In this document: positions 2,730-27,531 of the stretch, one piece after another | Position numbering within the stretch: position 1 is the first letter of the stretch | How the letters are laid out: the number at the start of each line of letters is the position of its first letter | Assembly (NCBI GenBank): GCA_027621385.1 | Contig: JAQCBQ010000002.1 | Coordinates: forward strand, 1 to 37,395 | Direction of reading: 5' to 3' | DNA from: Bacteroidota bacterium | GTDB taxonomy: Bacteria > Bacteroidota > Bacteroidia > CAIKAF01 | DNA: 37,395 bases | Notes under the pieces: generated by a model | Database searches by the model: none | Seen by the model: the letters and a program-made list of their open reading frames with translations, nothing else | What the model was told of the DNA's origin: nothing | Position numbers and translations under genes: made by a program

Positions 2730-2905
2730 AAAAAATGGGGATTGGATGTGAGCCGCTGCGCCCCCGATTGAACCGGCAGCCGGAGCCGGACAACCGGCAG
2801 TGCAACCTGGCTGAGGAGGCGACCTTGGGAGCCACCGCAAGCCAAGGTTGCACCCGGTTGTACAATCCGGCTACAGGTGAAAGCGGGAAATGGCGCCCAA
2901 CTTAA
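2730..2905 (-). repeat. GC-rich structured intergenic element, copy 1 (minus orientation)
   Basis: The reverse complement carries blocks GGGCGCCATTTCCCGCTTTCACCTGTAG (2871-2898), TGCGGTGGCTCCCAAGGTCGCCTCCTC (2813-2839) and CTGCCGGTTCAATCGGGGGCGC (2758-2779). Self-complementary arms separate the blocks, and the element ends in a T-run (2730-2736 on the minus strand). Confidence 0.8.
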
Positions 2906-2958: not shown

Positions 2959-4317
2959 ATGAGCGCACTTAACGCATTGAAATCCATAAGTCCGATTGAC
3001 GGAAGGTATGCTGGAATTACAGCTACTGCGGTTGACTATTTTTCTGAATATGCGCTAATTAAGTATAGAATTCGGGTAGAAACGGAATATTTTTTGGCCT
3101 TGGCAGAGGCGGGCTTGCCGGGCTTTCCGGCATTGATGAAAGAGCAGCGAGTTAAACTTCGGGAGCGGCTGCTGCGTGTTCAAGATGAAGATATTCTTGC
3201 AGTGAAGGAAATTGAGGGGAGAACCAATCACGATGTAAAGGCTGTTGAATACTTCATTCAACAGGTTTTTGAAGAACTGGGATTACCGGAGCAAAGCAAG
3301 GCCTTTATTCATTTTGGATTGACATCTCAAGACATCAATAATACAGCTATTCCGCTGAGCATCAAGGAATGGCAAGAAGAAGTTGGGGAGCCGCTGCTGC
3401 AAGAGTTGATTCAGCACCTGCGGGTGCAGGCCGAGGCCTTTAAAGATGTCCCTATGCTGGCTCGAACGCATGGGCAAGCGGCTTCACCGACGCGCATGGG
3501 AAAGGAGTGGATGGTCTTTGTTGAGCGCCTTGAAAATCAGGCCCGCATGCTACAATCTATTGATTTTCAATGTAAATTCGGAGGGGCAACCGGGAATTTT
3601 AATGCCCATTATGCTGCTTACCCTCAACTTCATTGGCCTTCTTTTGCCGATAAGTTTTGCCGCGAACGCCTGGGATTGGCTCGGCAGCGGTTCACTACTC
3701 AAATTGAGCACTACGATATGCTCGGGGCTTTTTTTGACACCTGGAAGCGGATTGCAGTTATTTTAGTGGATTTTTGCCGCGATGTGTGGCAGTATATTTC
3801 TATGGATTATTTCCGGCAGCGCATCCGTAAAAATGAGGTGGGCTCTTCGGCTATGCCGCATAAGGTAAACCCCATTGATTTCGAAAATGCAGAGGGAAAT
3901 TTGCTGTGGAGCATTCCCATGCTGGAATTTTTCCCGGCTAAATTGCCCGTGAGTCGCCTGCAGCGCGATTTAACCGATAGCACAGTATTGAGAAACATCG
4001 GAGTCCCTTTTTCTCATCTGATGATTGCCCTATCCTCGATTAAAAAGGGATTGGGGAAAATTAAGCTCAATCCGCAGGCCATTTTAGACGATTTAGATCG
4101 GCATCCGGAAGTAATTGCCGAAGCCATTCAAACCATACTGCGCCGCGAGGGTTTGGCAGATGCGTACGACAAACTAAAGGAATTTTCTCGGACGGGAGAA
4201 TCAATCAATCTGCTTCATTTGCAGGCCTTTGTGCGCAGTTTGGGCTTGAGTGGGCCGCTGGAACAAGAGTTGCTCAATCTGCATCCCAGGCAGTATTTGG
4301 GCGACTTTTTGCATTGA
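2959..4317 (+). CDS. purB: adenylosuccinate lyase
   Basis: 452 aa ORF. It opens with SPIDGRYA and has the fumarate-lyase signature GSSAMPHKVNP. Length is typical for PurB. Confidence 0.95.
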   Translation: MSALNALKSISPIDGRYAGITATAVDYFSEYALIKYRIRVETEYFLALAEAGLPGFPALMKEQRVKLRERLLRVQDEDILAVKEIEGRTNHDVKAVEYFIQQVFEELGLPEQSKAFIHFGLTSQDINNTAIPLSIKEWQEEVGEPLLQELIQHLRVQAEAFKDVPMLARTHGQAASPTRMGKEWMVFVERLENQARMLQSIDFQCKFGGATGNFNAHYAAYPQLHWPSFADKFCRERLGLARQRFTTQIEHYDMLGAFFDTWKRIAVILVDFCRDVWQYISMDYFRQRIRKNEVGSSAMPHKVNPIDFENAEGNLLWSIPMLEFFPAKLPVSRLQRDLTDSTVLRNIGVPFSHLMIALSSIKKGLGKIKLNPQAILDDLDRHPEVIAEAIQTILRREGLADAYDKLKEFSRTGESINLLHLQAFVRSLGLSGPLEQELLNLHPRQYLGDFLH

Positions 4318-4320
4318 TTT

Positions 4321-4508
4321 TTTTAAGGTTTTTGGGGCGCCATTTCCCGCTTTCACCTGTAGTGTAGGCTCAGCCAAGCTGCAAACAGGGCCCTGCGGTG
4401 GCTCCCAAGGTCGCCTCCTCGGTTTCTGTTTGCCGGCTTGCCTGGGCCCACACTGCCGGCTCAATCGGGGGCGCGAGGCCCAATGCTCCAGCGGATGTTT
4501 ATTTTTTC
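4321..4508 (+). repeat. GC-rich structured intergenic element, copy 2 (plus orientation)
   Basis: Blocks at 4335-4362, 4394-4420 and 4453-4474 are identical or nearly identical to copy 1. Arms 4363-4390 and 4423-4452 pair with each other but are unrelated in sequence to the copy 1 arms. A T-run lies at 4502-4507. Confidence 0.8.
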
Positions 4509-4511
4509 TGA

Positions 4512-4546
4512 AGCAAAAAAAAAGACCAAGCCTAAGCCTGGTCTTT
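4512..4546 (-). terminator. rho-independent terminator of mdh
   Basis: Perfect 8-bp stem AAAGACCA (4521-4528) / TGGTCTTT (4539-4546). On the minus strand it is followed by a run of about 9 T (complement of the A-run ending at 4523). It sits 20 nt downstream of the mdh stop. Confidence 0.7.
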
Positions 4547-8629: not shown

Positions 8630-11458
8630 ATGAACCCAAGCTCAGCTCCTAAAAAATTAGTGTTGATTGACGGCTATGCCATGGTCTATCGGGCATATTT
8701 CGCATTTATTAAAAACCCCAGGGTAAATTCGAAAGGCGAGAACACCTCTGCAGCATTTGGATTCACAAACCTGTTGAACGATTTACGGAAAAAGTTAAGC
8801 CCTACCCATTTGGCCGTGGTGTTCGATCCCGCTGAAGATCATGGCGAACGTGCAGAAATTTTTCCGGAGTATAAAGCCCACCGAGAGGCCATGCCGGAAG
8901 ATTTACGAAGTTCCCTGCCCCATATCGTATCTATTTAATACGTGGCCAAGGCCGAGTTCGTTCAAGTTGAAGGCTTTGAAGCAGATGATGTTATCGGAAC
9001 CCTCGCCGTTCAAGCTGAAAATCAGGGGTTTGAAACCTACATGGTGACCAGCGATAAGGATTATGGACAATTGGTTTCTGAAAAGCGACTTTGGTATAGG
9101 CCAGGCAGGATGGGAAGTCCAGATCAAATTCTAGGCCCGGCGGAAGTCTGCGAGAAGTTCCAGGTAGATCACCCCCTTAAGGTTATTGATTTGCTCGGTT
9201 TGATGGGAGATAGCGCAGATAACATTCCGGGAATACCCGGAGTAGGAGAAAAAACCGCCGTAAAATTATTGGCGGAGTACGGAACGGTAGAGGGGGTTTT
9301 AGCCAAGCAGAATGACGTGTCAGGCAAATTGGGGGAGCGCATTCGTGAGCATGCTGGTTTGGCTTTAATTTCAAAAAAGCTAGCCACCATTGTACTTGAT
9401 GTGCCCCTAGAATGGGATGAATCTGATTTGGAATGCAAAGCCCCAGATGCAGAAGAGCTTTCAAGGGTCTTTGCAGAATTGGAGTTTAGAAATCTCGCCG
9501 AACGCATGTTAGGCCCTTCTTCTCTTCCTGCTCAGGCAGCTTCCGCTCCGGTCCAATCGACCGCAAAACCCCAAGATTTGTTCAGCTATCAGGAGGCATG
9601 GGATGTAAGCCCCGTTGCCCTTCCTACGGAAGTTCCTGTTCAATTGAATACCCTTGAGAGCAAGCCACATCAGTACTTTGTTGTTCAAGATGCATTGTGG
9701 CGGGCCGATTTGCTTGCCGAATTGCTTCAGCAGTCTAGTATAACCATCGATACCGAGACCACAGATATAGACCCGCTAAAAGCAGAGTTGGTTGGTCTTG
9801 TTTTTTCTTTTCGGGTTGGGCAGGCCTACTATTTGCCTATGCCCCGGGAAAGGGCTGAATCATTAACACTGTTGGCCGATTTTGACCCCTTATGGAAACG
9901 GTCAGACATTGAATGGATTGGTCAAAACATCAAGTACGACCTGTTGGTTTTGAGGAACTACGATATACACCTCTCAGGGCGATTGTTCGATACCATGCTG
10001 GCTCATTACCTAATGGAACCAGAGTTGCGGCACAATTTGGATTTTATGGCTCGGACGTATTTGGGCTACGAAACCATCCCTACCGAAGCCCTGCTTGGCC
10101 CCAAAGGGAAGCAGCAAAAAAACATGCGCGATATACCTGTTGAACGGGTGGCCGACTACGCTTGTGAAGATGCTGATATAACCTTACAATTGGCTCTTCA
10201 TTTTAAGCCTTTGTTAGAGAAGGCAGGAGTTCAGTACCTGTTCGACGAAGTGGAAATGCCCTTGCTGCCTGTTTTGGCTGACATGGAATGGGAAGGGATA
10301 AATATTGATTCCGGTCGACTGGCGGAATTGAGTGCCAGTTTCGGCCAGCAAATTGAATTTGAAGATCGGACCATCCAAGAGATGGCAGGGACGAACTTCA
10401 ATACAGCTTCCCCAAAGCAACTGGGAGAAGTTTTGTTTGACCATTTAAAGTTGGATGCCAAAGCCAAGAAAACCCGTACAGGACAATACTCTACCAATGA
10501 GGAAACACTAAAGAAGTTAGAAGGGAAGCACCCCATTATAGAACATATATTTGAGCTGAGGGAATTGCAAAAGCTAAAGGGGACATATTTGGACGCGCTT
10601 CCTGAGCTACGGCTTCCAAGAACCGGAAGGGTGCACACCAACTTTAATCAGGCGGTGGCAGCTACGGGTCGCCTAAGTTCCAATAATCCCAATTTGCAAA
10701 ACATTCCCAATCGAACGGCAAGAGGTAGGGAAATCCGAACGGCCTTTGTGCCTAGGTCTTCTGATTTTCGATTGGTATCTGCTGACTACAGTCAAGTTGA
10801 ACTCAGGTTGATTGCTGAGCTGAGCGGAGAAGAGCAGATGAAAGAGGCCTTTCGGCAGGGACAGGACATTCATGCCGCTACGGCAGCCCGCATTTTTTCG
10901 GTTGCGTTGAATGAGGTGGATAAAACCATGCGCAGCAAGGCCAAGATGGTCAATTTTGGAATTATTTATGGAATCTCGGCCTTTGGCTTGGCGCAACGAT
11001 TGGGCATTCCGCGTTCAGAGGCCGCAGAAATCATCTCGGCCTATGTGGCTACCTATCCCGGGATTCGTGAGTATATGGATTCTCAAGTGGCATTTGCCCG
11101 CAATCACGGGTATGTAGAAACCCTAATGGGGAGACGGCGTTATTTGCGTGATATTACCTCTGCCAATCAGACCGTTCGTGGATTTGCGGAACGCAACGCC
11201 ATCAATGCTCCGATTCAAGGTTCGGCGGCCGACATCATTAAATTGGCCATGATTCGCATACAGCATGCCATTCAGACGGAAGGCCTGCAAAGCCGTTTGG
11301 TGCTTCAGGTGCACGATGAATTGGTGTTTGATACCCACCTATCAGAACTGGAGCGGATCGTTGAATTGGCGAAGCACCACATGCCGGCAGCCTACCCTCT
11401 TTCGGTGCCCTTAGAAGTAGAGGTGGGTGTTGGAATGAACTGGCTTGAAGCGCATTGA
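8630..11458 (+). pseudogene. polA: DNA polymerase I interrupted by one in-frame TAA (8936-8938). Track ORFs 8630..8938 and 8942..11458 are in the same frame.
   Basis: The N-terminal piece is the start of the 5'-nuclease domain (LIDGYAMVYRAYFA). The sequence continues colinearly after the stop (...PHIVSI*YVAKAEFVQVEGFEADDVIGTLA...SDKDYGQL). The 3'-5' exonuclease-like region and polymerase motifs follow (RVHTNFNQAVAATGRLSSNNPNLQNIP, DYSQVELR, QVHDELVF). The total of about 941 codons is normal for Pol I. Confidence 0.85.
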
Positions 11459-17690: not shown

Positions 17691-17711
17691 ATTTAACTAA
17701 CCTGATTAAAA

Positions 17712-17749
17712 AGGGTAAAGCGCTTGTCGCTTTACCCTTTTTTGTTTTA
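17712..17749 (+). terminator. rho-independent terminator of the 1201-aa gene
   Basis: Perfect stem AGGGTAAAGCG / CGCTTTACCCT (17712-17738) with a CTTGT loop, followed by TTTTTTGTTTT. Confidence 0.8.
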
Positions 17750-17794: not shown

Positions 17795-17980
17795 GTTTTA
17801 CGTCGCCTGCGGCCCGGATGGAGCCGGCACCGCGGGCGTGAACGGGGCCGCTGGACCATGCATGGAAAGGCGACCAGCGGAAGCCATTTCCATGCCCGGT
17901 CCAGCCCCCGTTCACAACCAAGGTACAGGTGACAGCCGGATTAGCCGCCCTCATTATTCCAATACGAATGACTATTGGTG
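17795..17980 (-). repeat. GC-rich structured intergenic element, copy 4 (minus orientation, most diverged)
   Basis: The reverse complement reads GAGGGCGGCTAATCCGGCTGTCACCTGTAC, then its own complementary arms (GTGAACGGGGGCTGGACCGGGCATGGAA / TTCCATGCATGGTCCAGCGGCCCCGTTCAC) around the apical TGGCTTCCGCTGGTCGCC, then TGCCGGCTCCATCCGGGCCGCAG. Confidence 0.65.
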
Positions 17981-17996
17981 AATTCGAAAAAGAATG

Positions 17997-19545: not shown

Positions 19546-20418
19546 ATGAAAATTCTATTGTTCGGGAAAAGTCTAGGAGAAGAAGATGTTTCGCTGCTTC
19601 AGGGAATGCGTGATTTTCTGATCCGGAAGAACTGTGGAGTTTGCGTGTATGAACCTTACAACCGGCACTTGCTGGAACGGCATGGACTCGACCTTGGGTT
19701 GCCAATATTTTCAGAGCGAAATGTCCCTGAAGATTCAGATGTCTTAATCGGACTGGGTGGCGATGGCACTATTTTGGAAGCCGCAACCGTTTTAAAAGCC
19801 ACCGGAATTCCAATGTTGGGAATTAATTTGGGCCGGCTTGGATTCTTGTCTCCAGTACCAAAACCATTGGTAGAACAAGCTTTAACTTCGTTAACTGAAG
19901 GGCACTTTACCATTGAAAAGCGGGGTGTATTGGTGGCGGAAGTGGAGGGCATCGAGGAAGAGGCCAAAATGGCCCTAAATGAAGTTACTTTGTTGAAGCG
20001 GGACAGCTCCTCGATGATTGAATTGCGTTGTTTGTTGGACGGTCAGTATTTTAATACGTATCGCTCTGATGGTCTGATTGTTTCAACCCCAACTGGATCT
20101 ACAGGATATTCCCTAAGCTGCGGAGGCCCCATTGTGCATCCATCGGCCCCCGTGCTGGTGATTACTCCCATTGCTCCCCATAACTTGACTCAACGGCCTT
20201 TTGTGGTTTCAGATGGTGCCGTGATTGAGCTGCAATGTACGTCAAGGACCGGAGATTATTTGGTGAGTTTAGACAGCCGCAGTTATCCTTTGCCGGATTC
20301 TCAGCCCATTCGGATTCGTAAAGCCGCCTATTCCGCTTCGTTTGTGCATTTGAAATCAATGAATTACCTTCAAACACTAAGGAATAAATTACTTTGGGGG
20401 CTGGATGCACGAAACTAA
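19546..20418 (+). CDS. nadK: NAD kinase
   Basis: 290 aa. It has the GGDGT motif (LIGLGGDGTILEA) and the TPTGSTGYSLSCGGPIV motif. Confidence 0.9.
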   Translation: MKILLFGKSLGEEDVSLLQGMRDFLIRKNCGVCVYEPYNRHLLERHGLDLGLPIFSERNVPEDSDVLIGLGGDGTILEAATVLKATGIPMLGINLGRLGFLSPVPKPLVEQALTSLTEGHFTIEKRGVLVAEVEGIEEEAKMALNEVTLLKRDSSSMIELRCLLDGQYFNTYRSDGLIVSTPTGSTGYSLSCGGPIVHPSAPVLVITPIAPHNLTQRPFVVSDGAVIELQCTSRTGDYLVSLDSRSYPLPDSQPIRIRKAAYSASFVHLKSMNYLQTLRNKLLWGLDARN

Positions 20419-20448
20419 AATCGGGTTGGTTTATTCGAGAAAGGTGCC

Positions 20449-20456
20449 TACCTTTG
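20449..20456 (+). promoter_or_regulatory. candidate -7 box TACCTTTG for the first DUF6089 gene
   Basis: Exact TAnnTTTG match 24 nt upstream of the ATG at 20481. Confidence 0.35.
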
Positions 20457-20480
20457 GGGAATATATCATTTCCTGAATCT

Positions 20481-21431
20481 ATGAATCGTTCGGCTACTCT
20501 CTCGTTGTTTCTACTACTGCTTGGCATTTCCTCTGTAAGCCAAGCCCAGTCTCGTCGCTACGCTACTGAACAAAATTGGATGGAGAATTTTCGGGTGGTA
20601 ACCGGGATTGGAACTATGAATTTTCTTGGTGATTTGGGAGGAGCCAATGACATTGGCCGCTCCTTTTTGGCCGACTGGGATTGGGAAGCGGTACGTCCTG
20701 TAATTCAGGTTGGAGCTCGGTATCAGTGGCACCGTCGGTTCGCAACCCGTGCCTCCTTTAATTTTGGATGGACCGTAGGAAAAGATTCTTGGACCGAAGA
20801 TCCAGCCAGAAATGCCCGCAATTTATCTTTCCACTCGTTTAATTTTGAATGGGGATTTTTGCCGGAGTTCTATTTCTTGCCCGACGTGCCATTGAAAGGT
20901 CGATACCGTCGCCGCGGTGTAACCGGTAAAACAGGGCGTCCCGTTTTGGGCTACATCTACAGTGGAATCGTTGGCTTTACTATGAATCCCATGGCCAGAA
21001 ATCCCTACGACGGCTTGACTTATGAATTGCAACCCCTCGGTACTGAAGGGCAATTTGTTCTCCCCACGCGGGATCCTTATAGCCTTGTTCAAGTGGCCAT
21101 TCCAATTGGAGTTGGTTTTTCCTTTAAAATTACCAATGAAATCAATCTGGATGTTGAAGTGGGTTGGAGAAGAACGTTTACCGATTACATGGATGATGTT
21201 TCATCTACGTATGTGGATCCCAATTTGTTTGATAGCGACGTTGCAAAGCAATTGTCGATCGGAACTCAAGCTTATTACGTAGATCAAACTCCTGAACCTG
21301 GCGTGCAAGTGTTTGGCCCCGGCGATCAGCGAGGCAACCCCCAAGACAACGATACTTATTTGTTTTTTGCGTTTAATTTAAGTTGGAAATTGACGGCATT
21401 CAAAAACTCAGCCCCAAAATATCCCCGCTAA
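20481..21431 (+). CDS. DUF6089-like outer-membrane beta-barrel protein (paralog 1)
   Basis: ORF 20394..21431. Signal peptide MNRSATLSLFLLLLGISSVSQAQ fits a start at 20481. It has alternating aromatic/hydrophobic beta-strand patterns and FTDYMDDVS. Its position between nadK and uppS is conserved in Bacteroidota. Confidence 0.65.
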   Translation: MNRSATLSLFLLLLGISSVSQAQSRRYATEQNWMENFRVVTGIGTMNFLGDLGGANDIGRSFLADWDWEAVRPVIQVGARYQWHRRFATRASFNFGWTVGKDSWTEDPARNARNLSFHSFNFEWGFLPEFYFLPDVPLKGRYRRRGVTGKTGRPVLGYIYSGIVGFTMNPMARNPYDGLTYELQPLGTEGQFVLPTRDPYSLVQVAIPIGVGFSFKITNEINLDVEVGWRRTFTDYMDDVSSTYVDPNLFDSDVAKQLSIGTQAYYVDQTPEPGVQVFGPGDQRGNPQDNDTYLFFAFNLSWKLTAFKNSAPKYPR

Positions 21432-21483
21432 CCTGTAGTAGATATACGAAAATGTCTGCTTCGGCGTTCGCATATTGCGCATT

Positions 21484-22314
21484 ATGAGGCTGACCTCGAC
21501 GCTTTTAGTTGCTCTTCTTTTTCATTTAAGCTCTATAGCCCAAACACATGAGTTGGGTTTTGGAGTCGGAGGTTCTTATTACCAGGGCGATTTGAACCCT
21601 GAAATCCCCTTTCAACAAACCGAATTGGGATTCCAGGTTTTTTATAGAAAAAATTTTGGCTACCATTGGTCCCTTAGGGCCGGAGGATTCATGGGTAAGG
21701 TTCGTGGAGATGATTCCCTGGGAACCTATGATTTTCAAACAAATAGAAATCTTAGGTTTGAATCGCAAATCTATGAAGGATATGGCCTTCTGGAATTTAA
21801 TTTCCTGCCCTTTCGTCCTGGCCGAACCAACAAAGGAGGCGCTTGGACCCCCTTTGTGTTTGCCGGAATTAGCCTCTTTCATTTTGCTCCCGAAGTAAAC
21901 TACAATGGAACATTGGTTGATTTGGCTTCCCTCAATACAGAAGGACAAAATCTGCCCGGTTCCGTACTGGAAGATTATGGCCGAATTTCTATGTCGGTTC
22001 CCTTCGGAGCGGGCATCAAACTGAAATTGTCCAATCGGTTTAGTCTAATGACCGAATGGGGAATGCGCATGACCTTTACAGATTACTTGGATGACGTTGG
22101 AGTTTCTTATCCCAACCAGGCCCAAATGGTCATTATCAATGGGCAATTGGCCTCTGAATTGTCTGACCCTTCCCTTGGTGGGTTGGTAGGCGGCAGCCCT
22201 TTAACAGGATACCAACGAGGAACTTCAAATAATTTAGACTGGTATTCCTTTTTCAGCGTATCTTTGGTGATTAAAATTAACGACCCAAGAATCTGTTACA
22301 TGAATGGTCTTTGA
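21484..22314 (+). CDS. DUF6089-like outer-membrane beta-barrel protein (paralog 2)
   Basis: ORF 21475..22314, with an ATG at 21484 and signal peptide MRLTSTLLVALLFHLSSIAQ. It shares FTDYLDDVG and YQGDLN-type motifs with the preceding gene. Confidence 0.65.
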   Translation: MRLTSTLLVALLFHLSSIAQTHELGFGVGGSYYQGDLNPEIPFQQTELGFQVFYRKNFGYHWSLRAGGFMGKVRGDDSLGTYDFQTNRNLRFESQIYEGYGLLEFNFLPFRPGRTNKGGAWTPFVFAGISLFHFAPEVNYNGTLVDLASLNTEGQNLPGSVLEDYGRISMSVPFGAGIKLKLSNRFSLMTEWGMRMTFTDYLDDVGVSYPNQAQMVIINGQLASELSDPSLGGLVGGSPLTGYQRGTSNNLDWYSFFSVSLVIKINDPRICYMNGL

Positions 22315-25749: not shown

Positions 25750-26352
25750 ATGAAAAACGTACTTTTTTTCCTTGGCTTATCTTTCTTATTTTCCCTCTCC
25801 ATGCAGGCTCAACGCATGGCCTATGTTGATAGCGATTACATTTTGAGCAACGTGCCAGAATTTAAGGCCGCCCAAAAGCAACTGGAAGACATTTCGGTCG
25901 AATGGCAAAAGGAAATTGAAACCAAATTGACTGAAATTGATGCCATGTACCGCAACTATCAGGTGGAAAAAATTCTGTTGAGCGAAGAAATGCGCATCAA
26001 AAAAGAGGATGAAATTCTGGCTAAAGAGAAAGCCGTAAAGGAACTGCAAAAAAAACGATTTGCTCCCGGTGGAGATTTTTTCAAAAAGCAAGAAGAATTA
26101 ATTCGTCCGATTCAAGACAAAGTGTTTAATGCAATTTCTAGTCTGGCCGAAGATAAAAATTACAGCATGGTACTCGACAAGGCGGGTTCTACTACGGTGA
26201 TGTACGGCAACAAACGGTTTGACATCAGCAACGATGTAATTAAGGAAATGGGCTTGGTCCCAGGTGCCATTGACGATGAGGATTCCGATGATGAGGACGA
26301 CCCTGAGGATGAAGACTCAAAAGACCAACCCATCAAAATTGATAAGCGCTAA
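25750..26352 (+). CDS. OmpH/Skp family periplasmic chaperone with acidic C-terminal tail
   Basis: ORF 25699..26352. Signal peptide MKNVLFFLGLSFLFSLSMQAQ fits a start at 25750. The core is coiled-coil and K/E-rich, and the tail reads DDEDSDDEDDPEDEDSKD. It sits immediately downstream of bamA. Confidence 0.8.
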   Translation: MKNVLFFLGLSFLFSLSMQAQRMAYVDSDYILSNVPEFKAAQKQLEDISVEWQKEIETKLTEIDAMYRNYQVEKILLSEEMRIKKEDEILAKEKAVKELQKKRFAPGGDFFKKQEELIRPIQDKVFNAISSLAEDKNYSMVLDKAGSTTVMYGNKRFDISNDVIKEMGLVPGAIDDEDSDDEDDPEDEDSKDQPIKIDKR

Positions 26353-26353
26353 A

Positions 26354-27136
26354 ATGCGTACCCGCATCGGAATGTTTGACTCAGGAGTCGGGGGACTCAC
26401 GGTTCTAAACGCATTCCGCAAGGCCTTCCCTATGGCTGATATTCATTATGTGGGAGATACCTTGCACATGCCGTATGGCGATAAAAGCCCCGAAAAAATC
26501 CAGGAATTCAGTCGGCAAATTGCTCGTTATCTCTGCAGTCAAGGAGCTGAACTTATTGTTATTGCCTGCAATTCAGCTTCCTCATGGGCATACCAGGAGG
26601 TCTGCGATGCGGCAGGTCAGATTCCCGTTCTCGATGTGGTTCGGCCCATCGTACGCTTCTTGGCAAACTCGCCCCAGTTATCTCAGGTTGGGTTAATCGG
26701 TACCCGAGCTACCATTCAATCCGGTATTTATCCAACATTACTGAAGGCAGCAGCTCCCCAAATTCACATCGATGCCCTGCCAACCCCCTTACTGGCACCC
26801 TTGGTAGAAGAGGCCATCGAATTGCGCGCTCTCAACCGCTTATTAATTGAACACTATCTGCATCAGCTCGACACGGAATCCATTCAAGCCTTAGTCCTAG
26901 CCTGTACCCACTACCCGGTTCTGCAAGATATTTTTGTTGAGGTGCTTGGTCCCACCATTCAGGTTTTAAATCCCGGCGAGGTACTGGCCGATGAGTGCCG
27001 TTCAAATGGAATGACCTTCGAAGGTACCGGCAGCTTGCGCTGCGAAATAACCGAATACACTCAGGCATTCGACAAAACAGCTGAACGCCTGCTCGGCCAA
27101 CCCATTCAGCTCAAAACCGTTCAGCTGCCAGCCTAA
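26354..27136 (+). CDS. murI: glutamate racemase
   Basis: ORF 26264..27136. The canonical N-terminus MRTRIGMFDSGVGGLTV starts at 26354. Also present are IACNSAS and the LACTHYP cysteine motifs. Confidence 0.9.
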   Translation: MRTRIGMFDSGVGGLTVLNAFRKAFPMADIHYVGDTLHMPYGDKSPEKIQEFSRQIARYLCSQGAELIVIACNSASSWAYQEVCDAAGQIPVLDVVRPIVRFLANSPQLSQVGLIGTRATIQSGIYPTLLKAAAPQIHIDALPTPLLAPLVEEAIELRALNRLLIEHYLHQLDTESIQALVLACTHYPVLQDIFVEVLGPTIQVLNPGEVLADECRSNGMTFEGTGSLRCEITEYTQAFDKTAERLLGQPIQLKTVQLPA

Positions 27137-27171: not shown

Positions 27172-27341
27172 TTTTTAGGTGTTTTTAGTTTGGGCGGCCG
27201 CGGGCTTTCACCAATAGTCCGCAGCGGCAAGTGGCTGGGCCAGCGGGTTTGCGTGGGCTCCCAAGGTCGCCTCCGCACCGCGCGGCCCAGGCACTTACCG
27301 CTTTGCGGGCTATTCGGTTCAATCCCTGCCGCAATGCCCCA
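27172..27341 (+). repeat. GC-rich structured intergenic element, copy 3 (plus orientation)
   Basis: It reads GGGCGGCCGCGGGCTTTCACCAATAG, then its own arms 27218-27249 / 27278-27310. The invariant GGCTCCCAAGGTCGCCTCC lies at 27257-27275. The 3' part is CTATTCGGTTCAATCCCTGCCGCAATGCCCC. Confidence 0.75.
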
Positions 27342-27531
27342 TGACCTATCATGGAAAGGAAATTATTCCGAGCCCCTGAATCACTACTTTTTCAAAGTAA
27401 AATCACCATACACGGTGCTTTCCTCTTCAACATGAATTGCGATTGGTTCACGTTTGTTCCTTCATAATATTTGTACCTTCGAACTTTGGTTCTGCTAACC
27501 AGAGTTTTACTAATCCTTTAAATTTAAAACC

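Follow-up and report, generated by a model that had tools for sequence, protein, structure and literature searches.

What keeps a long hairpin paired while much of its sequence turns over? The question is raised by a 37,395-nucleotide stretch of Bacteroidota DNA (contig JAQCBQ010000002.1, the whole of which is called the window below), which holds four GC-rich hairpin elements. A preliminary description had placed the four from the letters alone, and reading each site bears out those positions. Moreover, a two-block pattern finds exactly four matches in the window, which are the four elements and none elsewhere, with 0 expected in shuffled sequence. The elements have a G+C content of 64-66% against ~46% across the window, an enrichment that had been remarked before. 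Each folds into one rod of 138-140 nt, with z of -3.7 to -6.9 relative to dinucleotide shuffles, so that the 5' arm of every copy does pair with its own 3' arm, as proposed. The genes of the window are housekeeping genes. The four rods are the following:

Copy 1, 2758..2896, minus strand: rod hairpin of type A; MFE -83.7 kcal/mol, z = -5.7
Copy 2, 4337..4474, plus strand: rod hairpin of 138 nt; MFE -76 kcal/mol, z = -3.7
Copy 3, 17809..17948, minus strand: rod hairpin of a divergent subtype; MFE -90.9 kcal/mol, z = -6.9
Copy 4, 27194..27332, plus strand: rod hairpin of type B; MFE -87.2 kcal/mol, z = -5.9

Matches of the R2 covariance model to these copies score 108 bits (copy 1, 2742-2903), 93 bits (copy 2, 4330-4490), 72 bits (copy 3) and 175 bits (copy 4, 27187-27348). 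Copy 1 occupies a divergent intergenic region and is co-oriented with the ORF at 1552-2700, while copy 4 lies downstream of, and co-oriented with, a racemase-family gene (26264-27136). Copy 3 stands antisense between two plus-strand genes, downstream of a canonical terminator (17708-17742). Orthologs are available for copy 1 (loci L006, L049:685 and L061:3726) and copy 4 (L058), and those of copies 2 and 3 are taken up below. The labels of copies 3 and 4 had been interchanged in the preliminary description: the arms TCCGCAGCGGCAAG.../...CCGCTTTGCGGG and the GGGC.GGC..GGG helix belong to the plus-strand copy at 27172, and GCGG..CCGG/CCGG.CCGC to the minus-strand copy at 17795.

The anatomy of the element can be followed along copy 2, all of whose parts are given on the plus strand:

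Leader, 4318..4336, plus strand: T-rich, C-free and ending in GGG, between the stop codon of purB (TGA at 4315-4317) and the rod
P1 strands, 5' 4337-4341 and 3' 4470-4474, plus strand: the ends of the rod
Basal module, 5' side GGGCGCCATTTCCCGCTTTCACCTGTAG, 4335..4362, plus strand: P1, 5' bulge, P2 and the GCUUUC side of the internal loop
Variable 5' arm, 4363..4393, plus strand: pairs with 4421-4452 in the fold
Apical module TGCGGTGGCTCCCAAGGTCGCCTCCTC, 4394..4420, plus strand: GGC/GCC and CC/GG helices, a U/UC internal loop and a variable tri/tetraloop
Variable 3' arm, 4421..4452, plus strand: complement of 4363-4393 in the fold
Basal module, 3' side CTGCCGGCTCAATCGGGGGCGC, 4453..4474, plus strand: the UCAAUC side of the internal loop, P2 and P1
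GC-rich 3' tail GAGGCCCA, 4475..4482, plus strand: family consensus R-G-S-C-C-C-C at +1..+8

An independent repeat finder reproduces the block matches between copies 1 and 2 that had been counted by hand, namely 28/28 for the 5' side of the basal module, 27/27 for the apical module and 21/22 for the 3' side of the basal module, and it finds the apex block in the plus-strand copy at 27172 as well. The columns of the 5' arm of copy 2 reach a best paralog identity of 0.27, which is the level of unrelated sequence. In the orthologs of copy 2 (L024, L049 and L061) the 5' arm changes with compensation, and in two orthologs the apical CC/GG pair has become CU/AG.

The term four-copy, by which the element was introduced, is right for the window and wrong for the family. 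RNAalifold on a plain MAFFT alignment recovered the apex only, because the arms were misaligned, and covariance models were built instead. The covariance-model search that the preliminary description had suggested finds 85 sense copies at >=50 bits in the window and three Flavobacteriales MAGs, and 116 further copies in metagenome contigs. Antisense matches at the same sites reach at most 31 bits, and chance loci give no score. Overall, at least 181 distinct copies are present in the window, the three MAGs and the freshwater metagenome contigs, and the density in the sampled sequence suggests that a genome probably carries a hundred or more. As far as the collected sequences tell, the family is an undescribed, intergenic and lineage-specific one of uncultured freshwater Flavobacteriales; a search of the literature on flavobacterial repeats found no described repeat of such kind.

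The family unit of ~160 nt consists of a leader of ~10 nt, the rod hairpin and a GC-rich tail of ~7 nt, which ends about where the similarity between young paralogs stops. The hairpin measures 139.9±2.2 nt, with ~47 nt in each arm (181 unique cores), and within it two invariant, strand-asymmetric modules, basal and apical, stand on either side of a hypervariable stem, a spacer of ~30 bp that is free in sequence and fixed in length and pairing. The basal module comprises P1, a 5' bulge and P2, and also a helix in which GCUUUC faces UCAAUC and the pyrimidine-pyrimidine mismatches are fixed. Its GCUUU and ACC are near-invariant in the 85 copies, P1 and P2 covary, and TC.ATC is invariant in 56/56 pattern matches from the genome collection, though the 3' basal block was not in the search pattern. 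The apical module has the consensus GGCU-CC...GG-UCGCC, and nearly all copies keep GGCU.CC and GGUCGCC. Both sides of the internal loops are conserved, yet neither is the complement of the other. Since the arms vary, ORFs overlapping copies show no conservation.

Ahead of the rod, the leader is 45-77% T and 0-6% C at -12..-3, across the family and in every genomic context, and -2/-1 is G in >94% of copies. It was considered as a general feature of gene ends or as a T-run at the target, and both were rejected since all contexts carry it, ordinary gene ends (~30% T, 21% C) do not, and young paralogs share it. As a Bacteroidetes -7 promoter box it fails in that A is disfavoured where TAnnTTTG needs it and nothing is conserved further upstream. 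Nor does the rod extend into the flanks or the leader pair with A-rich sequence downstream, the duplex energies of true flanks being no better than those of mismatched pairs.

Pairing along the rod is well conserved, with 89.9% and 91.0% of cells paired in two data sets and 46/54 and 47/54 pairs changing on both sides. Covariation scores of 0.491 and 0.442 compare with 0.13 and 0.12 in shuffles and 0.05-0.12 for slid partners, a control that thus falls 4-9 times below the observed values, and 0/500 shuffles matched these values on any of five measures. The covarying pairs that were expected to emerge once more copies were aligned are therefore present, above both the shuffled and the slid controls. 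The closing helix, whose covariation had been pointed out, carries GC 62 / CG 21 at one pair and CG 67 / UA 9 / GC 3 at the next, and the GTAG before the variable stem is itself part of a covarying helix, with AU 61 / UA 16 at its third pair. Certain positions show only U-A/U-G or G-U/A-U alternation on the sense strand; one has 56 UA and 25 UG with no other mismatch, and another has 49 UG and 26 UA.

Further, copies stand at syntenic sites in up to four genomes, between flanks with no more than 73-92% identity. Among these orthologs the blocks are unchanged and 81 pair changes go from Watson-Crick to Watson-Crick on both sides, 55 of them transversion and 26 transition pairs, which is the unbiased 2:1. 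Copy 3 and its ortholog L031 differ at three pairs, all compensated or repaired. One-sided changes in orthologs have left 22 A:C and 15 G:U. Across the variable stem, G:U amounts to 55 and A:C to 80 among 3509 pairs (20 and 19 in the first data set), so that G:U is no better tolerated there than A:C; an RNA helix under ordinary selection normally keeps far more G:U than A:C.

Taken together, the data support a constraint on the hairpin and the three blocks. The arms of the four window copies are dissimilar, as had been claimed, and look unrelated because the four derive from distant lineages, but the claim does not extend to the family, where arms within subfamilies are plainly homologous and diverge gradually. 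What had been called fully replaced arms do still pair; a better reading is that their divergence is saturated under a constraint to pair, with exchange between copies added to it.

In 70/201 copies a co-oriented ORF has its stop codon no more than 30 nt from the hairpin's 5' base, and in 105/201 no more than 60 nt from it, the rod starting ~+9 to +30 after the stop codon, and the 3' end faces a convergent gene at <=30 nt in 19/201 and at <=60 nt in 38/201. The copies are spread among housekeeping genes, in either orientation. The 135 unique copies that have two long neighbours fall into 57 convergent, 55 tandem and 23 divergent regions; sense copies outnumber antisense ones 38 to 17 in tandem regions (p=0.006), and in 44/57 copies of convergent regions a stop codon lies closer to the 5' side than to the 3' side (p=5e-5). 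Adjacent copies always form tail-to-tail pairs (+ then -), as would be expected if two convergent genes each own a copy. Read from gene coordinates, position and orientation favour a hairpin that would be transcribed as part of a 3' UTR. Copies antisense to both neighbours, or in divergent regions, pair and keep their blocks as well as sense copies do, which indicates that maintenance is independent of 3'-UTR position. Such integrity and the strictly Watson-Crick variable stem leave room for an action at the DNA level.

Several known kinds of element were considered and set aside. The preliminary description had recognised no Rfam family, and Rfam 15 indeed gives no match anywhere in the window at gathering thresholds; at E<=1 the sole window match is an unrelated lncRNA model away from the elements, and copy 2 returns noise only at E<=10. 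ARAGORN finds no tRNA or tmRNA gene, and a tRNA-like or T-arm reading of GGTTCAATCC was dropped, since the neighbours of TTCAATC find their partners in the 5' block, across the rod, and not in each other; type A has G where C61 of a T-arm would be. An intrinsic terminator was likewise rejected, as R-G-S-C-C-C-C at +1..+8 has no T run at a fixed position, and a hairpin followed by no U tract is not a classical intrinsic terminator. A terminator scan called 4521-4546 and 17708-17742 and none of the elements. Plasmid and phage/viral collections gave no matches, on which ground a phage or plasmid origin was rejected.

Could the family nevertheless be mobile? A structure under selection had been set against a MITE, and of this the constraint stands, on the covariation and the compensated orthologs, but the argument that excluded a mobile repeat fails. 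Some paralogs of the same genome have arms 90-98% identical in unrelated flanks; copy L056:2971 is a mosaic whose arms match one lineage and whose basal module matches another; some sites occupied in one species are degraded or empty in another; and a deletion has reduced one copy to a remnant. The family therefore behaves as a dispersed repeat that spread or exchanged sequence. Like a MITE, it is short (~160 nt), free of ORFs and present in many copies (at least 181 distinct ones). The rod ends pair for only 5 bp (P1, a covarying helix), and the conserved blocks are internal and mutually non-complementary. Two species-level empty sites were found, in intergenic DNA too diverged to place the junctions, and a candidate empty site of high identity turned out to be an internal deletion remnant and not an empty target. 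No target-site duplication was found: the 5' flank is T-rich, the 3' flank reads RGSCCCC, and the boundaries of young paralogs carry no direct repeat. A tail GGGCGGC was tried as a repeat of the 5' GGGCGGC and discarded, because tails differ among near-identical young copies. In 460 kb (the window and loci of 1.3-15 kb around matches), no multi-copy ORF or transposase lies near copies, and no RAYT-like gene was seen in the window or near copies. The same 460 kb yielded only chance 15-mers and no trans targets when searched for arm-derived or arm-targeted sequence, and TRF applied to another repeat, in L051, found nothing.

Any explanation has to account for the anatomy, the covariation, the conservation in orthologs, the bias in position and orientation and the constant length that are observed. 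The reading we prefer, though tentatively and with somewhat less than even confidence, is a REP/ERIC/TRIT-like 3'-UTR RNA hairpin that would be bound by a protein at its invariant modules. Sense transcription would place the unit at the beginning of the upstream gene's 3' UTR, and the leader would hold the hairpin out of reach of the terminating ribosome. As RNA, the rod may then act as a 3'-end barrier or an end-forming element, guarding against 3'-5' decay or blocking read-through, and a putative lineage-specific protein would touch both invariant modules across the fixed-length helix. The family might have been seeded by mobility and might still be reshaped by exchange between copies, while many copies have kept their site from species to species. 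We infer transcription, an RNA active form, the protein partner and an effect on the upstream mRNA. The sense-only wobble positions, the asymmetric loops, the fixed length and the placement after stop codons speak for this reading. On the other side stand the lack of wobble tolerance in the variable stem, the missing U tract after the hairpin, the integrity of copies whatever their context, the position of copy 3 behind a canonical terminator, and the near-identical paralogs, the mosaic and the remnant, which fit a selfish element equally well.

Such a selfish element, a non-autonomous DNA-hairpin mobile element of the MITE/REP/PATE kind, is the main rival and is possible, though on balance we consider it unlikely. 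The modules would be recognised by an enzyme encoded in trans (an HUH/Y1 or other transposase, for instance) that works on one folded DNA strand, arm complementarity would arise from quasi-palindrome template switching in replication and from conversion between copies, not from a need of the host, and the post-stop placement would reflect where insertion is tolerated or targeted. Beyond the paralogs with 90-98% identical arms, the mosaic and the differences in site occupancy, it would accommodate a strictly Watson-Crick variable stem that is symmetric between strands, with G:U and A:C about equally frequent and compensated changes at the unbiased 2:1 (55 to 26), as well as the context-independent integrity and the limitation of the family to one clade. 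However, the missing target-site duplication, the chance level of flank-to-flank pairing, conserved parts that are internal and asymmetric in place of terminal inverted repeats, and the failure to find a transposase or multi-copy ORF in the window or near copies (460 kb), or any match in phage, plasmid and viral collections, all weigh against it. Moreover, the blocks remain perfect in old copies whose arms are unique and which are syntenic across species, where inactive selfish copies would be expected to decay; correction by template switching would erase the conserved mismatches, yet these persist; and the orientation bias towards the upstream gene needs an additional assumption.

The sense-specific wobble positions, the asymmetric conserved loops and the constant length would also suit trans-acting small RNAs of ~150 nt, made from their own promoters or processed, which might for example titrate or scaffold a protein via the two modules. 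Doubly antisense copies that the window and LaPlata share with compensated changes (copy 3 and L031, for example) and the independence of integrity from neighbouring genes point the same way. We nonetheless regard this as improbable: there is no conserved promoter at a fixed distance, -45..-13 being nearly without information; the leader misfits the Bacteroidetes TAnnTTTG box, with A disfavoured at the second position, and often begins a few nt past a stop codon, too close for a promoter to fit in between; the hairpin is not followed by a terminator; and it would be unusual for one small RNA to have a hundred or more genes. In enterobacteria, BIME-2 and RIB/RIP elements are protein-bound DNA sites at the ends of transcription units, and by analogy the element could be a duplex or cruciform DNA site for gyrase, a nucleoid protein or another chromosomal protein. 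The enrichment in convergent regions (57 vs 23 divergent), the strand-symmetric Watson-Crick arms and an integrity independent of transcription context agree with such a site, but a plain duplex gives no reason for arm complementarity or fixed length, G-T but not A-C at certain positions on one strand goes unexplained, and orientation bias in tandem and convergent regions is unexpected of a near-palindromic duplex, which makes this quite improbable. A measured substrate akin to a pri-miRNA, whose basal and apical junctions would be read as a ruler by a lineage-specific double-strand-specific enzyme or binding protein, would jointly explain the constant length, the free sequence and the intolerance of G:U and mismatches; we think it very improbable, as we do the extension in which the protein would cut out copy-specific small duplex RNAs or use the duplex as an identity tag of each locus.

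If the preferred reading of a 3'-UTR RNA hairpin is true, a clade of abundant uncultured freshwater Flavobacteriales would mark a large share of its gene ends with a 140-nt hairpin, a new lineage-specific gene-end element distinct from the hairpin-plus-U-tract terminators that these genomes also possess. The RNA biology of the phylum Bacteroidota is poorly known, and the family would add a gene-end architecture to it and would imply a putative protein able to read the two modules over a constant helix length. As a data set, the >180 copies, of which many have orthologs in three or four species, show a long helix staying paired during sequence turnover, and the lack of wobble bias and the exchange between copies bear on covariation as proof of RNA function versus the upkeep of palindromes at the DNA level. 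The covariance model can be used to annotate the repeats in metagenome bins; since contigs often end at repeats, it can also explain assembly breaks.

How does the family compare with known systems? ERIC/IRU of enterobacteria and the Correia elements (CREE/NEMIS) of Neisseria are imperfect palindromes of 100-150 bp without ORFs, present in tens to hundreds of copies. They are intergenic, lie in or at the ends of transcription units, form long mRNA hairpins, are syntenic and spread in a MITE-like manner. The present family is likewise palindromic, ORF-free, multi-copy, intergenic and old enough for synteny. However, terminal inverted repeats are what is conserved there, as against internal asymmetric modules and a hypervariable stem here; no TA or other target duplication is seen here; and here a directional leader and tail go with a marked sense bias behind stop codons. 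Sequence similarity to ERIC, REP and other E. coli repeat families is also lacking, copy 2 having no match at E<=1e-3 in 5,426 complete E. coli genomes (blastn, 11-base words).

REP/BIME palindromes, whose cognate RAYT (Y1 transposase) genes usually have REPs on their flanks, lie at gene 3' ends, often as inverted pairs, and serve as mRNA 3'-end stabilisers and protein-binding sites and are recognised as single strands. Tail-to-tail pairs occur here too, but REPs are 20-40 nt long with a stem sequence conserved within the genome, as opposed to a 140-nt rod with a variable stem, and GT[AG]G is fixed in REPs whereas the GTAG positions here covary with their partners. TRIT of Mycobacterium is a genus-restricted, abundant hairpin with tight positioning at stop codons and a proposed role as a non-canonical terminator (the RNIE paper, PMC3152330). 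It resembles the present element, as an analogue only, in being a lineage-restricted conserved hairpin placed relative to stop codons, but it is short and centred at ~-8 from the stop (PMC3152330), while the rod here has 140 nt and starts at ~+9 to +30. Compared by description, the present rod further differs in its two modules and hypervariable spacer helix.

Finally, integron attC sites have short conserved boxes and variable self-complementary arms and fold as a single strand with fixed extrahelical or mismatched bases. Conserved short boxes combined with variable self-complementary arms are common to both. Yet the present element has no R/L boxes (GTTRRRY), no cassette arrays in one orientation and no integrase context, and its apex is conserved, whereas the terminal structure is the variable part of attC.

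Four GC-rich elements of a common architecture lie in the window, all of them between open reading frames (ORFs), and re-reading of the sequence confirmed the sites and composition given for them in the preliminary description. Each holds a hairpin of about 140 nt, here called the rod, with conserved 5', apex and 3' blocks.

Rods of the four copies and the neighbouring terminators
2758-2896 (-): copy 1, in a divergent region
4337-4474 (+): copy 2, which starts 20 nt past the purB stop codon; a canonical terminator common to mdh comes next
4521-4546 (-): terminator between copy 2 and mdh; hairpin and T-tract, with an A run on the opposite side, and looks bidirectional
17708-17742 (+): terminator, hairpin and T-tract, after a 1201-aa type IX secretion cargo gene and before copy 3
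17809-17948 (-): copy 3, antisense, behind a canonical terminator
27194-27332 (+): copy 4, behind a racemase-family gene

An independent repeat finder recovered the blocks shared by copies 1 and 2 (28 and 27 nt, both at 100%, and 22 nt at 95%) and found the apex block in copy 4 as well (27172, +), while a pattern of 5' block plus apex matched only these four sites in the window, with none expected by chance. The arm sequences and closing helices ascribed earlier to copies 3 and 4 turned out to be interchanged. Folded alone, each copy forms a single rod of 138-140 nt (-76 to -91 kcal/mol; z-scores from -3.7 to -6.9 relative to dinucleotide shuffles); folding of both strands, as had been proposed, gives rods on the element strand and about equally good folds on the reverse strand, as near-palindromes should. 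Their G+C content is 64-66% against ~46% for the window, in line with the richness first noted, and Rfam holds no family matching them even at E<=1, again as supposed. The window itself is ordinary Bacteroidota chromosome, with genes including cmk, purB, mdh, polA, a Y-family polymerase, NAD kinase, uppS, bamA, ompH, pdxH and recO, and several type IX secretion cargo proteins. Two adjoining paralogous DUF6089/outer-membrane beta-barrel genes (20394-22314), upstream of uppS and bamA, are ordinary context unrelated to the elements. The DNA polymerase I gene (8630-11458) is interrupted by an in-frame TAA at 8936-8938 (...PHIVSI*YVAKAEF...), its 5'-3' exonuclease N domain being shared out over same-frame ORFs at 8630-8938 and 8942-11458; the interruption may reflect an error in sequencing or assembly, a pseudogene or recoding.

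It is now apparent that these four copies belong to a dispersed family. A single scan of the species-representative genome collection with this two-block pattern gave 62 loci, of which 54 come from three lake metagenome-assembled genomes (MAGs) labelled 'uncultured Flavobacteriales/Bacteroidetes' (LaPlata_bin-1703, ErkenSummer_bin-6618 and K_DeepCast_35m) and 8 are single matches in unrelated phyla. LaPlata contig 19 is nearly identical to the window and carries orthologs of all four copies. A covariance model seeded with copy 4 and its ortholog, rebuilt from 63 clear sense matches and searched again, found 85 copies at >=50 bits in the window and the three MAGs (the first set), including second or third copies in many 8-kb loci that had escaped the strict pattern, and gave <=31 bits on the antisense strand of the same sites. 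The 8 out-of-phylum loci had no score with the model and are therefore chance matches. With another pattern (apex plus 3' block, 5' block unconstrained), a scan of metagenomes gave at least 120 stretches; the matches listed are JGI/ENA contigs, including the Ga0194129 data set from which the K_DeepCast MAG derives, and among them the model found at least 116 copies in 80 loci. With duplicates removed, at least 181 distinct hairpin cores remain. Nothing similar was found among viral contigs (IMG/VR), plasmids, phages or E. coli genomes, nor was a description of the family found in the literature searched; it lies outside the curated RNA families and annotated collections searched.

Young paralogs and position profiles set the limits of the unit at ~160 nt.

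Parts of the unit
Leader: ~10 nt at the 5' end, T-rich and almost C-free, with an invariant GG at its end
P1: 5 bp, GCGSC/GSCGC
5' bulge: 3-5 nt, sequence variable
P2: 3-4 bp
Mismatch helix: GCUUUC opposite UCAAUC, containing two U-A pairs as well as three pyrimidine-pyrimidine mismatches, which are fixed
Long stem: first and last parts moderately conserved, middle ~16-20 bp hypervariable
Apical module: a U/UC internal loop enclosed by GGC/GCC and CC/GG helices, with a variable 3-4 nt cap loop
Tail: 3' end, consensus R-G-S-C-C-C-C

Two main subfamilies were recognised, type A (GGGCGCC...CCCG / CGGGGGCGC), to which copies 1 and 2 belong, and type B (GGGCGGC...CGGG / CCCUGCCGC), with copy 4, besides rarer subtypes that include copy 3. 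Hairpin length is 139.9±2.2 nt (138-143 nt in 176 of 177 full-length cores), the arms between block anchors measure 47.0±1.2 and 46.5±2.7 nt, and the rod does not reach into the flanks. A different GC-rich repeat of ~130 nt, with at least two units in tandem and not reported by TRF, occupies one retrieved locus (L051:1-330, minus strand); its unit begins TTGATTTTGGGCGGAGGGAGGC..., similar to the leader and initial bases of the rod elements, contains the hairpin GGCAGCCCATGGGCTGCC, and may represent a related or decayed family.

Pairing in the rod is maintained to a degree that shuffling does not approach. Across the 85 copies, standard pairs fill 89.9% of cells against 69.0% with shuffled partners, 46 of 54 pairs are changed on both sides, doubly changed cells number 787 against 208, and the covariation score is 0.491, compared with 0.133 after shuffling and 0.07-0.12 after a shift of the partners by 1-3 columns; on every measure the observed value lies beyond all shuffles. 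The independent metagenome set agrees (91.0% paired, 47 of 54 pairs, covariation 0.442 against 0.117). Because the alignments were fitted to the model's structure they are somewhat biased towards it, yet the differences from the controls are very wide. All four Watson-Crick pairs occur at many stem positions (such as CG 27, GC 26, AU 14, UA 10), and the covariation claimed for the closing helix is borne out in the family alignment.

Flank comparison further identified at least 13 groups of same-site copies across two to four genomes, with flanks 73-92% identical and mostly coding, in which the blocks are essentially unchanged and the stems differ.

Base pairs compared between orthologs, all pairs
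No change: 985
Double change from one Watson-Crick pair to another: 81
One side changed, Watson-Crick to or from G:U: 15
One side changed, Watson-Crick to or from A:C: 22
One side changed, Watson-Crick to or from other mismatch: 57

Between copy 3 and its LaPlata ortholog, for instance, two pairs show compensated changes and one mismatch is repaired. Pairing and blocks have therefore been maintained locus by locus during species divergence. The preliminary description had held that selection on structure would be undermined if the arms were ordinary diverged homologous sequence; homologous and diverged they are once aligned, yet they have diverged under a pairing constraint.

Two features of the sequence favour the strand in the orientation given here. 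At several stem positions close to the modules the sole alternatives are a Watson-Crick pair and a wobble on the element strand (U-A 56/U-G 25 with no other combination; U-G 49/U-A 26; U-G 52), which on the opposite strand read as A-C mismatches, and the sides of the internal loops are conserved separately without being complementary to each other. A simple picture of RNA selection is opposed by the hypervariable stem, which is without any wobble tolerance (G:U 20 against A:C 19 in the first set; 55 against 80 among 3509 pairs in both). Compensated ortholog changes comprise 55 transversion and 26 transition pairs, an unbiased 2:1 ratio. One possible explanation, plausible at sites of convergent transcription, is that the helix is required on both strands; another is that a putative partner demands a perfect duplex. 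Alternatively, complementarity may be restored in DNA, one arm being copied from the other or both replaced from another copy, which requires no function for the variable stem but cannot explain the persistence of asymmetric mismatches, blocks and length.

The position of the copies was counted from the stop codons of long ORFs alone, as exact positions. Among 201 copies the 5' base of the hairpin lies <=30 nt from a co-oriented stop in 70 and <=60 nt in 105; the 3' end faces a convergent stop at <=30 nt in 19 and <=60 nt in 38. Of 135 unique copies flanked on both sides by ORFs of >=150 codons, 57 are in convergent regions (5' side nearer the stop codon in 44, p=5e-5), 55 in tandem regions (38 sense, 17 antisense, p=0.006) and 23 in divergent ones. 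Closely adjacent copies are always tail-to-tail (+ then -), one behind each convergent gene, with model matches 8-80 nt apart or, in L102, overlapping by ~20 nt, and none was seen head-to-head; in the retrieved loci, numbered L with positions after the colon, such pairs occur at L066:678-1018, L121:9778-10118 (same locus as L045:5363-5703), L102:8134-8437, L069:2497-2830, L120:5489-5829 and L130:6993-7400, and resemble BIME-like pairs. The leader is found in every context and is absent from ordinary gene ends. Copies in 'wrong' contexts are as well paired as the others (~0.90), and their blocks are no less intact. No U tract follows the rods and a terminator scan calls none of the elements; the canonical terminators at 4521-4546 and 17708-17742 indicate that the host uses ordinary intrinsic terminators besides them. 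A sigma-70-like promoter match (17953-17982, minus strand; TTCACC, 18 nt, AATAAT, with TG) ends at the 5' edge of copy 3 and is probably due to chance, since such matches are rarer in the whole region than in shuffles (22 against 27.5) and the Bacteroidota promoter consensus differs from the sigma-70 type.

The family also shows the dynamics of a repeat. In each genome some paralogs have arms 90-98% identical within unrelated flanks; others, including the type A copies of the window, have arms no closer to one another than random sequence (identity 0.27-0.45). The copy at L056:2971-3134 is a mosaic, its variable arms being 98% identical to L020:6446 and L019:4949 and its basal module, at the base of the rod, quite different, from another lineage and internally compensated (GGGCTTTCCTTGCTAC.../...GTAGCTTCGTCAGTCCC), which suggests exchange of the central part between copies as the best explanation. 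L019:4949, whose arms share 98% identity with those of paralogs from the same genome, differs in mid-stem sequence from its apparent LaPlata ortholog (L035). At two sites the element is present in one species and absent from others. At an Erken locus (L019:3258-3312) all that is left of a copy is its first 14 nt and the pre-apex TTTGCGGGGG, as GGGCGGCCGGCGGG + TTTGCGGGGG, after which the adjacent short hairpin GAGACAACCCATGGGTTGTCTC occurs a second time; the locus holds a deletion remnant, as its flanks are 93% identical to Tanganyika contigs with an intact element there (L128:2778-2918, L094:1779-1919).

Overall, the comparative evidence speaks mostly for single-strand hairpin elements that form a dispersed family and are subject to purifying selection, given the sense-strand features, the directional leader and tail, the constant length and two invariant modules, together with the strong sense preference right after stop codons and the enrichment at gene ends. 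Our leading, though tentative, view of their function is that the active form would be RNA at the start of the 3' UTR, the rod acting as a barrier or end-forming structure and a putative protein touching both modules. The main rival, a selfish DNA-hairpin element mobilised in trans, seems to us somewhat less likely: mosaicism, strand-symmetric stems, young copies and the integrity of copies irrespective of context all fit it, but it leaves unexplained the orientation bias and the perfect blocks long kept in old unique copies. Nor does it account for the lack of any terminal-repeat or duplication signature; no target-site duplication was found at the copies, and no repeated ORF near them in 460 kb. 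Less likely than either would be an independent small-RNA family, which we regard as improbable, and a duplex or cruciform protein site, slightly more improbable still.

A role of this kind is known for REP, ERIC and Correia elements. A similar role at gene ends has been proposed for the TRIT motif of Mycobacterium (PMC3152330). Like these families, the rod family shows repeat dynamics. It is the same in kind as the bacterial intergenic palindromic repeats, but its architecture is unusual for the class: its conserved modules are internal and asymmetric, and between them runs a hypervariable, strictly Watson-Crick helix of fixed length.
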